Under the pieces are notes generated by a model. The model ran no database searches, had not been told where the DNA came from, and saw nothing but the letters and a program-made list of their open reading frames with translations. A stretch of DNA of 64,000 nucleotides, taken from Octopus vulgaris (taxonomy: Eukaryota). The position numbers and the translations under genes are program-made. The stretch covers positions 5,084,001-5,148,000 of the forward strand of contig OX597831.1 in assembly GCA_951406725.2 (NCBI GenBank), written 5' to 3'. Shown here one piece after another: positions 7,790 to 57,896 of this stretch; the first letter of the stretch is position 1; each line of letters starts with the position of its first letter.

Positions 7790-7996
7790 TTATTTCTTTA
7801 TTGCCCACAAGGGGCTAAACATAGAGAGGACAAACAAGGACAGACAAAGGGGTTAAGTCGATTACATCGATCCCAGTGCGTAACTGGTACTTAGTTTATC
7901 GACCTCGAAAGGGTGAAAGGCAAAGTCGACCTCGGCGGAATTTGAACTTAGAACGTAACGGCAGGCGAAATACCGCTAAGCATTTCGCCCGGTGTG
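7790..7996 (-). mobile_element. SINE family A, long-tail variant, 5'-truncated
   Basis: Matches 395-632. Confidence 0.85.
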
Positions 7997-13299: not shown

Positions 13300-13300
13300 T

Positions 13301-13560
13301 ATGAGAATGATCCCTGGCTTACCATCCCTGCAAGAAGCGCAAAAGATTGTCTTTACTGGTACATCACACGTATTGAGAAGAGCATTGTCGATGTAAGAAC
13401 TATTACTACCCATGTATTTTAATTTAACTTTAAAAAAAATGAATGAACTAGTGAGTTTACTTTAATGGCCTACCAATGTATACTATGAGTTTCTTTGCCC
13501 TAGGAGTCGGGAAGACACTCGGCAAGAAATGGAAGCAAATTTCAAAGAAGAAAAAAAAAG
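13301..13560 (+). mobile_element. 5'-truncated R4/Dong-like non-LTR retrotransposon (family 1): ORF C-terminus and 3' UTR
   Basis: Frame RMIPGLPSLQEAQKIVFTGTSHVLRRALSM* (stop 13394-13396) is homologous to the C-terminus of the next element. (AAT)n lies on both sides. Confidence 0.75.
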
Positions 13561-13578
13561 ATAATAATAATAATAATA

Positions 13579-14055
13579 GATGCGAATAGGCCAGACATCA
13601 TATTGAAAGACTTCAGACAAAAACCATGCCTCCTCATTGATATGACTGTCCCGATCGATATAAATGTATCTGTCAAGACCTACCAAAAACTGAGCAAATA
13701 TAAAGATCTTGAAATAAAAATGTGGAAACTCAAGACTAAAACAATACCTGCTGTAATAGATACCCTAGGAATGATAGCAAAAGGGGCTGATTGCTCCCTA
13801 GCTCAAATACCAGAAAATACCAAAATGGCAGAAATTCAAAAGATAGTGTTCATGGGAACTGTCTATGTAATCTCAAATTTTAAAACAAACTCAAAATTTT
13901 CTTATGCTTTCTTAAACATTCTCTAGAACAAATACCATGTGCAAAACCAAATATACGATACCCTATATGACACATGAACTTCTAAATTGTTACCTTATGA
14001 GGTCTGTGGGTGAGGTATGGAGCCAACTTGTACAAATACAAAGTAAAAGTCAAGC

Positions 14056-14057
<2 letters not shown>
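13579..14057 (+). mobile_element. 5'-truncated R4/Dong-like non-LTR retrotransposon (family 2) with restriction-like endonuclease domain
   Basis: DANRPDIILKD..CLLIDMTVP..KLSKYKDLE..MWKLKTKTIP..TLGMI..EIQKIVFMGT is the PD..D..K RLE motif typical of R4-clade elements. (AAT)n lies on both sides. Confidence 0.85.
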
Positions 14058-14127
<70 letters not shown>

Positions 14128-36039: not shown

Positions 36040-36973
36040 ATATGTATGTATATATGTATATACTCACACACATACATACATATATACACACAGACATACA
36101 TATACATACATAAATCTATTTAGATATACTCACTCATACACACACAGATAGACAAACAGACAGACAGATAGGCAGACAGACAGACAGATAGATAGATAGA
36201 TACATACATACATACATACATACATACATACATACATACATACATACATACATACATACATAGACAGACGTGTACATATGTATCGTAATTTCAGGATTAT
36301 GTATATAGAGATATATATTTAAAGACGCAAATCCCTATCTAAGGAAGAACTACAGATGTCAGGTATAATATAAGTACGTCCGTGTCTGTGTGTGTGTGTG
36401 TGTGTGTGTGACTGTTTGCGTGTGTGTGTATTTATATGAGTGCATGTGTGCGTGTGTGCAAATGAATGCAATTGTCTGTATATATATATATATATATATA
36501 CAGCGTAACAGAGCAGACCGTATTTGTGCGAGAAACTCGTGGGAGCCGAGGATGGTTGGCTGATTGTCTGCATACGAAGCTGAGCGAAGCTTCACTGAGA
36601 GAGTGAGAGAGAGAGGCAAGAGAGAGAGAGAGTAGTAGCATCACTCTTCGTAATGATATGCTGTTGGCGATAGTGTCGCTGCCGGTGCTGGTGGTGTTGT
36701 TCTTTATTGGGGAGGGGGGTGCTACGTTGCTCATTGTTGGGGAGCGGTGGCAGGGAAGAAATTCTACGGATCAAACATGATTGGCTGACGTGTGTTTCGA
36801 AGGCAGAAACACATTTTGACAACGCCTTATGAAAATTTCCTTTGCTCTTCTTCGTGTTGCTCATAATAGATATATAACAACGTTGATGTAATTTTGAACA
36901 CGTTTAGAAGTTGGTGCGTTGGTCCGGGCGAAATAGGCTGGTATGGGTGCGTGCGCGTATGGATGTCTGTCTG

Positions 36974-37072
<99 letters not shown>

Positions 37073-37209
37073 ATCTATCTATTTGTCTGTCTGTCTGCCT
37101 GTTTGTCTGATTGTCTGTCTGCCTTTTTATCTCTCTTTTTCTCTATCTATCTATTTATCTATATATATATATATCTGTTTATCTAACTATGTATCTGTCT
37201 GTCTGTTTG

Positions 37210-37241
<32 letters not shown>

Positions 37242-37253
37242 CCTACCTATCTA

Positions 37254-37386
37254 TACGATCCCTTTTGATCGAAACTCCCCCTTCCTTTTTTTTTTTTTTT
37301 TTTTTTTTTAAACCTTCAAAAGAAAAGCTCTACCTTGTAATTTGTTCTATCTGTGTGCAGCCCTGTGTGGCTAATAAAGAAACATA
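37254..37386 (+). mobile_element. Extremely 5'-truncated copy (3' UTR end) of the Tx1-like LINE, within (TCTA)n
   Basis: Matches the reverse complement of 49501-49640 except in the poly-T run. Ends GCTAATAAAGAAACATA-(TCTA)n and is preceded by (TCTA)n. Confidence 0.9.
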
Positions 37387-37576
37387 TCTATCTATCTATC
37401 TATCTATCTATCTACCTGTCCACCTGTCTGTCTGTCTGTCTATATATTTATCGATCTATTTACCTATTTAGATACCTCTCTCTTTCTCTCGCTCTCCCTC
37501 CCTATATATATATATATATATTGTATCGTTTTCTTGAGTTATACGTTCTTGTCCATGTTGTATTTTTCTACATACC

Positions 37577-37722
<146 letters not shown>

Positions 37723-46620: not shown

Positions 46621-47325
46621 TGATGATAATAATGATAATAATAACAATGATAGCAATAATTATTATTGTTGTTGTTGTTGACATTAATAACGTCATTAAA
46701 TTTAATATTAGCTTTAATTTCATTAATATTGCAATCCCCCCTCTTTCTCCTAAAATATAATAGCCACCAGCACCACCATCACCACCACCACCACCACCAT
46801 TATCATCATCATCATCATCATCATCATCATCTTTTCATCGCCATCATTCTCATCACCATCGGTACCGATATCAAAACCTTCATCACAATCGTGGTCAGCA
46901 TAATCCGTAGTCATCACTCCCGTCGTCGCCACCGCCGCCGTCATCGTCGTCGTCACCGCCATCATCCTCGTTGTCGCCGCCGCCCTCGCCTTCATCATCA
47001 GCGCAATCATCATGAGTAACAACAGCAGCAACAACAGTATCATGTTCTGCTGTTCCTCTTGTTGCTGTGCTCCTTATCGTGCGCCATCTTTGTTGTTAAT
47101 ACAGAATTGATTATAATTACTGAAAATACAACACAGGCAGCGACTGTAGTCCACGGTGGCCGATGAGCCCCTCCTGATGGTCTCCAGAATGCCTTAGAAT
47201 TTTGAAAAATCCACACAGCCCTCATCGTCATTAATATCAATATTTTAATGAATGCAAGGAAGTCGTTATTATTTTATAATTACTTTTCTGAGTAAGAAAC
47301 ACGAAAATATGTTTATATAATTATG

Positions 47326-47396
<71 letters not shown>

Positions 47397-47398
<2 letters not shown>

Positions 47399-47890
47399 GG
47401 GTATCTATGACGGAGTAGAAGTTTCAGATATGGTCGGATTATATGTGACCTACATGCAATGAAAAATAGAACAAGATTCAACAGCGCAGGACTTTAGAGA
47501 AACGACGGTCTCACATTATTCCACAAAATGAAGGGTCATGATAGGACAAACACTAATTAGTATAATTAACATATTAACGTAAATGAACACAATAAATACA
47601 AACCAGCTCTATTTCTAACGTAATTCCAACGAAGAAGAAATAAATTGAAACTTTAGAAATTTATTCACGATCATACTAGAATCAATATTAGTAGACTTCT
47701 AATTTATCCTACTAGCTCTTGTTATTAGGTATTATTACAAGCTGAAATAACTAGAGCAAACAAACTATGTTAGATTGTACTAAACACTCTAATAGTGATA
47801 TAATATTGCATAATCCCCCTTTTAGTTTAAATGTCTCCACAAATGTTGCTAGAATCTTTCTAAATTAAATTAATAAGCGCTTCCCCACGT
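47397..47890 (+). pseudogene. Decayed Penelope-like element reverse transcriptase/thumb fragment
   Basis: MGIYDGVEVSDMVGLY (47397), GL*RNDGL (about 47489) and NPP..SLNVSTNVARIFLN*INKRFP (about 47812-47886) correspond to the PLE motifs MGSYDGAE..LVGLY, GLYRDDGL and WFNPP..NV.TN..FL.LI.KHFP. Stops, frameshifts and deletions are present, and the fragment abuts (TA)n. Confidence 0.8.
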
Positions 47891-48829
47891 TACTCGAGTC
47901 TCTTATCGGAGAAAGCGATATAGAGATCACATGTGAAGTCATTAGACGGTAAAGATGTATACTGGGTTAACCAAGAACACTTTTGAAGTTTGATCCACAC
48001 TGTACATCCATTTCTTTAGGTCGAGGAGTGAGATCAATGCTACGTAACTTTCGAAATTCGTTTGGTTATACAAAAATAGGAGAGATTGTAACAGATTGTT
48101 GTTATGTGGTGATTTATAGGGAAAGGACGTTTTCGAAGCGTAGAACTCAAGAAGCTGAGCCTTGTTGAGGTAAAGTCTGCTACAATAATGTGTCCTATTT
48201 CAAAACGCTTGCAGACTGATTGAATAGTTTCAGCTGATGATATGTTGATGTATATGGATGGTAATCTAAATTGCAGGTGTAGATGTTGTCCAATAATACG
48301 TCTTGGAACATTTCTGTCAACTGTCAAGGAAAATCTACAACTTTATCACAGATTGTCTGAAAACTTAATAACAAAGGGCCTGATTATTGTCTTGTAACAT
48401 GATAAGGCATTGATAAGGCCACTCCATTCCTCAACTGATCACGAAATTTCGAACGTTCTCTTACTGAAATGTTTCTCATAGTAATACAGCCAGATATCAA
48501 ACAACAGAAATCAGAGATACTGTCAAATTGTCGTCCTAAGAAAAAGTCCTTTCTGGACGACCCGAAATCCCAATCTAGTGAGTGAAATCCAGTAATTAGA
48601 TATAACAATGTCGCGTTTCGACGGGTAATCTCTTTTAATGCCATAACAGTTCAGACAAGTTACATTTATACTACTTATTCAAACATGTGATCTGGACAAA
48701 CCAATGACAATCAGCCTACACTGTGCAACAAGGAGAAAGTTGTATCTACTTTACTTTGCCTAGCCGCTTGATCATACTCATAACTTATGTGAAACTCCGA
48801 GTTACAAGGAGTAAGTCACCAAATTATTA

Positions 48830-48899
<70 letters not shown>

Positions 48900-49406
48900 C
48901 GCACGCACAAACACACAGATAGATAGATAAAGACACATAGATGCATGTAAGTATGCATGCATATCAGTATGTGTGCATTTATGCATGTATGTATGCATGT
49001 ATGTATGCATGTGTGTATTATGTGTGTATGTATAGGCTAAAATCGAACAGTAAAAATGATTGCTCAACACTGCATTGCTGGATCAAAACTCTTCATTTGT
49101 GTGTAAGCAAGGCGACCAAGTTTTCACGTGAACAAAAATCGAAACGTTAAAGACACTTCCATTTCCCTGAGCGTCAAACTAATTACACTTTGTTTGTTCT
49201 TCCCTCACCTATCTCTGTCTTGTGTTTTTTATTTTTTGTACAACTTTGAAACATTGATATGTAGGTGATCGATAGAGAGAGAGTTAAAGAGATAGATATT
49301 GAGATAGGGAGATACATAAAGAGACAGATAGCCAGACAGACAGATAAGCAGATATCGTCTTCTAAGAGTTATACGTTCTTGTCCATGTTGTATTTTTCTA
49401 CATACC

Positions 49407-49460
<54 letters not shown>

Positions 49461-49469
49461 TAGATAGAT

Positions 49470-49500
<31 letters not shown>

Positions 49501-50908
49501 TATGTTTCTTTATTAGCCACACAGGGCTGCACACAGATAGAACAAATTACAAGGTAGAGCTTTTCTTTTGAAGGTTTAAGAAAGAAAAAAAAAAAAAAAA
49601 AAAAAAAAGGAAGGGGGAGTTTCGATCAAAAGGGATCGTAAAAGGAGAGAAAGAGGACAAAAAAAAGGGGGGTTAAAAAAAGGGGGGAGGAAAAAATTGA
49701 TCAATAGGGATCGTTATCACAGAAATGTCAATATGAAGTGTAAAGGGGAGGACAGGTGAGGTTTACCCGTGCAAAGAAAAGCCTACGGAAAAGACCACGG
49801 TAACCTCGGTCAATGATGTCACATTTTATATTTCTTTTTTTTTTTTTTTGCAAATAAGCAACTCTCTGTTTTCGATTTCTGGGTTCATAGGACTATGCTC
49901 AAGGTGGCTTCGTCATTCATACGTGCCATTCTTGCTACATTCACCCATCTTTTTTTAAAACATTCGCTAGACAAAACTTGCCTCTCTACTCTCACTTTCC
50001 TTTTCAAGTGGTACTTGAAGAAGTTGATGAGAGATTGACCAGAGAGGAAAGTGTTTGTCTCCAATCCTTTCAGACGCGTCCACCAGATACATTCTTTCGC
50101 CATAGCCACAAGGATGATGAAAATAGCTCTTCCTTCCCGTTTGAAGGAAGGAGGCGTGACAATATTGACGATAGACTCAGCTGATAAACCGACTCGTCCC
50201 ACACGTGACAGCAGTTGTTCGACATAAGCCCACAGGTCGGAAATTGTTGGACACTGAACGAGTGCGTGCAGAACGGTTTCGTCGCTCTGACCGCATCTCG
50301 GGCAGGTCGGCCCCGAGTTTCTCGAGCCGTGTCTGTAGAGCTTATCCCGAACGGGTAGCGCTTCTCGGTAGCACTGCCAGGCCAGGGATCTCTGGAAGTT
50401 GTCCATGGGCCCTGGCCCGAAAGTCGTCCTGAGCAGGCGGGTCAGGTACTCCTCGTCGACGTCCAGGTTCGCCCCGAGCTCGTCGTCGTACCTCCCCTCC
50501 ACTAAACCCCTATAGAATGCTTTGGTTGTGTTGAAGTCACTTAAGGTCGACCCAGGACGGCAGAGTTGCTTGAGAGCAACGCGACACTCGCGGTGCCATT
50601 CGCCCTTCCTCGGCCTCTTTTTGATCCACGACTGCAGTTCGGTCATGGAGACGAGCTGCGGGAAAGCGTGCCTCACAAACGGCGACCACACCTGTTCACC
50701 GTCGTCTACATAGAGCCAGAGATGCCGCAGTCTCAGCGCGTGTCTGCGCATCATCAACCACGGCATGCCCAGCCCTCCTTTTAACGGGTGTTGACAGCAA
50801 ATGGATCGCCTGACCATCGGGACGCATCCTTTCCACAAGAAGCGAAAGAGGATGCGTTGTAGTTTGGTGATGGTAGGGTCGGGACAAGGTACGACGGTCA
50901 GGCGGTAG

Positions 50909-50913
<5 letters not shown>
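49501..50913 (-). mobile_element. 5'-truncated Tx1/L1-clade LINE inserted in (TCTA)n/(GATA)n
   Basis: GC-rich intact ORF2 3' part, about 385-nt 3' UTR and AATAAA 8 nt from the end. (TCTA)n lies on both flanks on the sense strand. Confidence 0.9.
49885..50913 (-). CDS. Tx1-like ORF2 C-terminal part: RT thumb and zf-RVT CCHC zinc finger (no start codon; 5'-truncated)
   Basis: [62 protein letters not shown] is the hallmark L1/Tx1 ORF2 C-terminus, with no internal stops over about 340 codons. Confidence 0.9.
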
Positions 50914-51152
<239 letters not shown>

Positions 51153-53047: not shown

Positions 53048-53273
53048 TCATTTCTTTATTGCCCTCAAGGGGCTAAACATAGAGGAGACAAACAAGGACA
53101 GACAAAGGGATTAAGTTGATTACATCAACCCCAGTGCGTAACTGGTACTTAATTTATCGCCCCCGAAAGGATGAAAGGCAAAGTCGACCTCGGCGGAATT
53201 TGAACTCAGAACGTAACGACAGACGAAATACTGCTAAGCATTTCGCCCAGCGCGCTAACGCTTCTGCCAGCTC
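53048..53273 (-). mobile_element. SINE family A, long-tail variant
   Basis: Near-identical to 2455-2686. Confidence 0.9.
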
Positions 53274-57629: not shown

Positions 57630-57663
57630 TTGAGAAATAATGATGGTGGTGGTATATGTGCGT

Positions 57664-57896
57664 GGCGGCGAGCTGGCAGAAACGTTAGCACACCGGGCGA
57701 AATGCTTAGCGGTATTTCGTCTGCCGTTACGTTTTGAGTTCAAATTCCGCCGAGATCGACATTGCCTTTCATCCTTTCGGGGGTCGATAAATTAATTACC
57801 AGTTACGCACTGGGATCGATGTAATCGACTTAATCCGTTTGTCCGTCCTTGTTTGTCCCTTCTGTGTTTAGCCCCTTGTGGGTAGTAAAAAAATAG
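57664..57896 (+). mobile_element. SINE family A, full length, long-tail variant
   Basis: GGCGGCGAGCTGGCAGAAACGTTAGC...GCCCCTTGTGGGTAGTAAAAAAATAG. Confidence 0.9.

Follow-up and report, generated by a model that had tools for sequence, protein, structure and literature searches.

Two insertions of an octopod L1-group LINE inside (TCTA)n tracts point to a microsatellite-preferring family

Two copies of a LINE, assignable to the L1 group by its protein relatives, lie inside (TCTA)n tracts of the Octopus vulgaris genome, and agree in the strand and register of the surrounding repeat. Both were found in one stretch of 64,000 nucleotides (hereafter, the window). From these two insertions, the LINE family to which they belong probably prefers microsatellites; families of this kind are known, but here both the target repeat and the host lineage would be new. 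That it has a real preference for TCTA, whether through its endonuclease or through annealing of its RNA, we hold with good confidence. As to the mechanism, we lean modestly towards targeting of (TCTA)n by an endonuclease that prefers (GATA)n. Counting against targeting are the number of insertions (n = 2), their spacing of 12 kb, and the richness of the genome in microsatellites.

The 3' end of the LINE was present exactly twice in a pattern search of the 64-kb stretch. Copy 1 (49503-50908, minus strand) consists of the C-terminal 341 codons of ORF2 with their stop codon (49885..50910, minus), followed by a pyrimidine-rich 3' UTR of 382 nt (49503..49884, minus), which contains an AATAAA signal and ends ...GGCTAATAAAGAAACA without poly(A). 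Copy 2 (37254..37384, plus strand) is 5'-truncated to the terminal 131 nt of the same 3' UTR, and runs in the opposite direction at a distance of 12 kb. Over the 133-140 nt that the copies have in common, the only difference is a 7-nt indel at a poly-T run. Each copy ends ...AATAAAGAAACA and continues immediately into TATC(TATC)n, with no poly(A) at either; the period-4 repeat starts directly after ...AGAAACA, placing the element ends at 49503 and 37384, and the AATAAA signal ends 6 nt ahead of the repeat. The 3' end is fixed in 2/2 copies, and the 5' truncation points differ. An initial annotation of this DNA had described two separate insertions with different 5' truncations, a near-identical shared UTR and (TCTA)n on both sides of each insertion on the sense strand of the element, all of which agrees with the present analysis. 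It was also right about identical ends without poly(A), but the end motif that it gave, AATAAAGAAACATA, includes two letters too many, since the final TA belongs to the repeat. Its uninterrupted ORF holds for the C-terminal 341 codons only, which contain neither stop nor frameshift; copy 1 is truncated downstream of the RT domain, leaving both RT and endonuclease outside the remnant.

TCTA is found on both sides of 2/2 window copies, on the same strand and in the same 3' register. Read in the sense of the element, copy 1 is preceded by 244 nt with about 60 nearly pure TCTA units (50909..51152, minus; purity 0.9-1.0 per 20 nt) and followed by TATC/TCTA units, (TA)4, further TCTA, and then (TC)n and (TA)n (49411..49502, minus). 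Copy 2 is preceded by a degenerate TCTA/TCTG tract of 290 nt (36964..37253, plus; purity 0.6-1.0 per 20 nt) and followed by seven TATC units and a degenerate TCTG/TCTA repeat (37385..37470, plus). The tract is degenerate on both sides of copy 2, while the inserted LINE piece is almost unchanged; because a single indel is all that separates the two LINE pieces, this tract likely predates the insertion. Beyond the first units the 3' flanks of the two copies diverge, which favours two events. Given that TCTA is also present 5' of both copies, in an old tract at copy 2, a pure repeat tail was rejected; so was a tandem array of copies, since a search of the window found no 3' end of the family ahead of either 5' tract.

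The letters at the 5' junction of copy 1 (50909-50913, ATCTA) can be read either as target or as element, where they would encode Ile-Tyr. At this break the window reads ATC TAC TAC CGC, in agreement with the Ile-Tyr-Tyr-Arg of the relatives (Ile-Tyr-Tyr in 6 of the 9 aligned relatives covering the site), so ATCTA appears to be common to element and target. The junction microhomology amounts to up to 5 letters (ATCTA) at copy 1 and to one T at copy 2. Such microhomology is expected in 5' truncation if the unfinished cDNA anneals to target DNA upstream. Inside the repeat, neither the precise position of the nick nor a possible target-site duplication can be read.

A domain search recognised a zf-RVT domain in the protein remnant of copy 1 (residues 175-227; E 2.3e-08). 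The remnant is 69% identical over its whole length to the RT-bearing protein P0002 and 61% identical to P0003 of Argonauta hians. The nearest relatives comprise unnamed proteins (63-81% identity) and Argonauta hians proteins (61%), and close relatives extend into the RT domain. Since the closest named matches come from Octopus bimaculoides and Argonauta hians, an octopod host is indicated. Wider relatives, at 33-37% identity over the remnant region, carry APE, RT and zf-RVT in about 1,150 residues; for P0022, which has all three domains, the best solved match is human L1 ORF2p (E 3e-68 vs 6e-21 for R2). The zf-RVT domain, the RT-bearing relatives, the wider APE, RT and zf-RVT group and the human L1 ORF2p match together identify the element, on protein similarity, as a non-LTR retrotransposon of the L1 group. 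The fetched protein relatives contained no full-length octopod ORF2, and hence no endonuclease of this LINE family; a partial endonuclease of an Argonauta paralogue, P0030, was seen.

Two trees bear on the clade. In an RT-only tree of 240 mostly unnamed proteins with a midpoint root, built without a named Tx1, Kibi, Koshi or L1 sequence, the lineage comes out as sister (0.975) to a group holding the Tx1L-like protein P0063. The endonuclease loop of P0063 matches the grafted Tx1L loop of PDB 2v0r at 81 bits, vs 64 for the plain L1 endonuclease. In a second tree (42 rows, RT to C-terminus, FastTree; again without a named Tx1, Kibi, Koshi or L1 row) the lineage stands on its own long branch, and its placement relative to the Tx1L-like protein differs from that in the RT-only tree. 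The LINE is a likely, though still putative, member of the Tx1 clade.

Some of the sequences retrieved are of interest in themselves. Two gene models of Octopus bimaculoides, P0005 and P0019, one of them a Rho GEF 10, start with an ORF2 fragment (80% and 97% identity); these fusions are probably annotation errors arising from insertions. P0011, a relative with 63% identity, is recorded as a protein of Herbaspirillum sp. from a 1,775-nt contig and is probably animal DNA in a bacterial bin. Searches of viral and metagenome contigs with exact 3'-end patterns yielded no true copy of the LINE 3' end, and one bacterial and two viral matches were rejected as chance, having no further similarity. In protein-alignment scans, 57, 57 and 31 candidate stretches came up and none was confirmed as related; overall, the viral, metagenome and bacterial collections yielded no true copy. 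Furthermore, no translated TCTA repeats, which would have marked additional 5' junctions, adjoined ORF2 fragments in 296 fetched proteins, and Rfam gave no match in the window.

Sequencing runs provide a view of the family beyond the window. At least half of the sampled words of the element are contained in 19 of the 24 listed runs, under five organism labels, and runs guessed to be RNA contain about 0.8 of the sampled words. Contigs of four runs from four studies were aligned to 49461-50930, leaving out the repeats at 49461-49622 and 50903-50930. They gave 40,354, 10,043, 27,651 and 34 pieces matching copy 1, numbers in which contig branching means many diverged copies, while contig depth gives no copy number. 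Among the 40,354 pieces of run X1, 13,340 were at 99%+ identity, 16,869 at 95-99% and 10,145 at 90-95%. By these alignments the LINE family is abundant and not uniformly young, spanning 90-100% identity. There are 141 variable sites in the copy 1 region, and the best-supported 40 of them, the ones listed, include 39 in the ORF; 27 of these 39 are synonymous, vs 30% expected (p 6e-7), in best-supported rows that lean to common variants. The excess fits several source lineages evolving under purifying selection. Copy 1 has private differences at 49772, 50316, 50433 and 50725 in about 1,250 covered bases, or ~0.3%, and these sites set it apart from nearly all other pieces, including those of the near-uniform run X10. 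With so few private changes, copy 1 is young by this sequence measure. The recent activity proposed in the initial annotation is borne out for the insertion of copy 1 (~0.3% private changes) but does not extend to the family as a whole (90-100%). Among the 20 loose contig ends listed, of 1,473, none is a GATA/TCTA run, the LINE 3' junction lying outside the compared region; several of the 20, judged by eye, look like the element continuing in diverged form. These ends therefore speak neither for nor against targeting.

In the mechanism that we prefer, an AP-type endonuclease would nick the (GATA)n strand, and the free 3' end of the nicked strand would serve as primer for reverse transcription, starting from the fixed RNA end ...AATAAAGAAACA. 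The TCTA tracts would have been there before insertion, as the degenerate tract at copy 2 and the junction microhomology suggest, and incomplete cDNA may have become linked to the repeat upstream through short pairing (up to ATCTA at copy 1, one T at copy 2). Full-length members would, like their relatives, carry APE and RT, and the endonuclease would set target choice, by analogy with Tx1L, Kibi and Koshi; its specificity, for (GATA)n, may be new. Insertion into abundant, mostly neutral repeats would represent a safe-haven strategy. In the available text of two earlier studies, target choice in such LINEs is ascribed mainly to the endonuclease (PMC4494074, PMC1950540).

On the other hand, the preference may come from the RNA. 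Transcripts that run past ...AGAAACA into a few UCUA units of the source locus would pair with nicked (GATA)n and prime reverse transcription, and the endonuclease would be loosely specific, its nicks leading to insertion mostly where the tract matches. This explanation, which we judge doubtful but the best placed of the alternatives, accords with the absence of poly(A) at either junction and with the continuation of both copies in the same repeat register. It also accords with the AATAAA signal, which ends 6 nt before the repeat, so that cleavage at the distance usual for such a signal would fall within the TATC units. In addition, according to the part of a study available, SART1Bm initiates reverse transcription internally in the 3' UTR if its tail is short, and the RNA end matters for priming (PMC7265360); by contrast, the Tx1L endonuclease alone is reported to nick almost only its target in vitro (PMC1950540, available text). 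Endonuclease choice and RNA annealing can act together, and the present data do not tell them apart.

The strength of the shared context was assessed under a model of two uniform, independent insertion events into the window with both elements cut out. In this background, perfect 24-nt tracts in the TATC phase cover 0.094% of site-and-strand positions, and the chance that both copies fall in that phase is 9e-7. It is 6e-5 if the TCTA tail is granted and TCTA is judged from the 5' flank alone, and 1.5e-4 if both copies may share one unit and phase of any repeat. The last figure, which holds for the same unit, strand and phase twice, argues against there being no family-wide preference or a weak one, with the two copies a chance or retention-biased sample from a genome full of microsatellites, or with the preference confined to one young subfamily. 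TA tracts, ~8x commoner per phase than TCTA tracts, yet unused by either copy, argue the same way. We regard such an outcome as unlikely, even with a sample of n = 2, ~5.7% of window sites inside some perfect tract, a family of many diverged subfamilies, and a SINE-like repeat with a similar tail whose five copies have TCTA flanks in no case.

These five copies of the SINE-like repeat, which is abundant in the window and which we take to be of the OK type, carry a 42-nt LINE-like tail; four are on the minus strand (402-627, 2457-2684, 7793-7996 and 53051-53273) and the fifth is on the plus strand (57660-57893). This tail and the final 42 nt of the LINE agree at 76-81% in the four copies scored, and other copies of the same SINE core have a different tail. 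Two of the five are directly followed by another core fragment starting at the same position, and in the window TCTA follows none (0/5). A SINE-LINE partnership is likely from the tail resemblance. If the SINE was moved by this LINE lineage, the 0/5 TCTA flanks would mean that strict targeting is not lineage-wide; with tails that agree at no more than 76-81%, the partner probably belonged to a sister family or an older one. A stem-loop conserved in the LINE/SINE tail found no support, with compensatory change in 0/8 pairs and z 0.92.

The independence of the two events is touched by another repeat. The window contains exactly two identical copies of a 47-nt piece followed by (TA)n (37536-37582 and 49366-49412, both on the plus strand), each within 140 nt of a LINE 3' end but with opposite orientations relative to the LINE. 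A weaker likeness continues for ~12 nt upstream, and at 37524-37582 (TA)n stands on both sides of the piece, which could mark the terminus of another, (TA)n-associated element. Its co-location with the LINE 3' ends is unexplained and makes the independence of the two insertions less secure. A simple duplication does not account for it, because at the two loci the piece points opposite ways with respect to the LINE and the intervening repeats differ. It is in our view highly improbable that there was one insertion only, copied by local inverted duplication or gene conversion and followed by deletion between repeats: the opposite directions of the copies at 12 kb and the 47-nt piece with (TA)n near both 3' ends, unlikely even with 82 TA tracts in the window, would suit it, but the piece is oppositely oriented with respect to the LINE in the two places, the repeats separating it from the LINE are pure in one and degenerate in the other, and the compared 5 kb regions have no other unique flank in common.

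With (TCTA)n targeting as the preferred reading, the octopus LINE may be set beside known systems. The primary paper on Kibi and Koshi is reportedly that of Kojima and Fujiwara from 2004. These teleost Tx1-clade LINEs target TC (Kibi) and TTC (Koshi) microsatellites, according to the accessible parts of later papers (PMC4494074, PMC3812793). Like the octopus LINE, whose APE is putative, they are APE-type LINEs with a microsatellite on both sides and a repeat with a TC step; unlike them, the octopus LINE has a purine-containing tetranucleotide, TCTA, and an octopod host, in a comparison made without Kibi or Koshi sequences. Eight crocodilian Tx1 families (Tx1-1_Crp, Tx1-5_Crp, Tx1-6_Crp, Tx1-1_Gav and Tx1-2/3/5/8_AMi) prefer (TTCC)n or (TTTC)n, and the available text that describes them takes the repeat in >20% of flanks genome-wide as the criterion for a microsatellite-specific family (PMC4494074). 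They resemble the octopus LINE in having a tetranucleotide microsatellite as target, but the repeat unit and the host phylum are others, and they were counted genome-wide, whereas the octopus LINE rests on two copies. The Xenopus element Tx1L has Tx1D as its target and a sequence-specific endonuclease (PMC1950540, available text). It has the L1-group ORF2 architecture of the relatives of the octopus LINE and is a model for endonuclease-set targeting, but its target is a DNA transposon instead of a TCTA repeat, and the Tx1L-like P0063 lies outside the clade of the octopus LINE.

Waldo/Mino and Dong belong to the R1 and R4 clades. They are microsatellite-targeting LINEs with ACAY and AC (Waldo/Mino) or TAA (Dong) as the repeat, according to the part of the source at hand (PMC3812793). 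They share insertion into simple repeats with the octopus LINE but belong to other clades and use other repeats. The window itself contains two head-to-tail pieces (13300-13560 and 13580-14059, plus strand), each between (TAA)n runs, that look like 5'-truncated LINE 3' ends. Presumably they come from a restriction-like-endonuclease LINE with a Dong/R4-like motif, and they are probably of the known TAA-targeting type; an Atlas search with them gave unnamed eukaryotic clusters only. Elsewhere, a decayed coding-like stretch (47292-48830) lies between two (TA)n tracts, and in one frame it resembles what we take to be a Penelope-type reverse transcriptase motif.

For Octopus vulgaris, 80 L1-Tx1 families covering 56 Mb and 13 recently active families have been reported (PMC13282606). 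These L1-Tx1 families share class label and host group with this LINE family, which is probably one of them, and the available part of that paper gives no target preference for them. The available parts of PMC8967140, PMC4758252, PMC4640811, PMC3747384, PMC9115989 and PMC11203168 mention no TCTA/GATA target. Across the literature searched, as far as its text was available, neither a TCTA target nor targeting by a cephalopod Tx1 element was found; Repbase, Dfam, Kojima and Fujiwara 2004 and the target figure and supplement of PMC4494074 lay outside this scope and may already list it. A tentative, wider hypothesis is that an abundant octopod LINE lineage, still active and standing apart from the Kibi/Koshi and Tx1L branches, independently evolved an endonuclease recognising (GATA)n/(TCTA)n, and that an older branch gave its 3' tail to a SINE subfamily without the preference.

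The mechanism itself would not be new. Tx1 families targeting tetranucleotide microsatellites are already in print (PMC4494074, available text). If the preference is genome-wide, a purine-containing tetranucleotide would join the short list of target repeats of APE-type LINEs, and this would be the first cephalopod case found in the literature searched. If it is true, GATA microsatellite markers in octopus would often be interrupted by LINE fragments. The octopod subfamilies, at 61-81% protein identity, would allow flanks and endonuclease loops to be compared so as to follow shifts in target choice, an open question for APE endonucleases. If the (GATA)n endonuclease evolved independently, the family would offer a datable gain of microsatellite targeting within one genus-level group.
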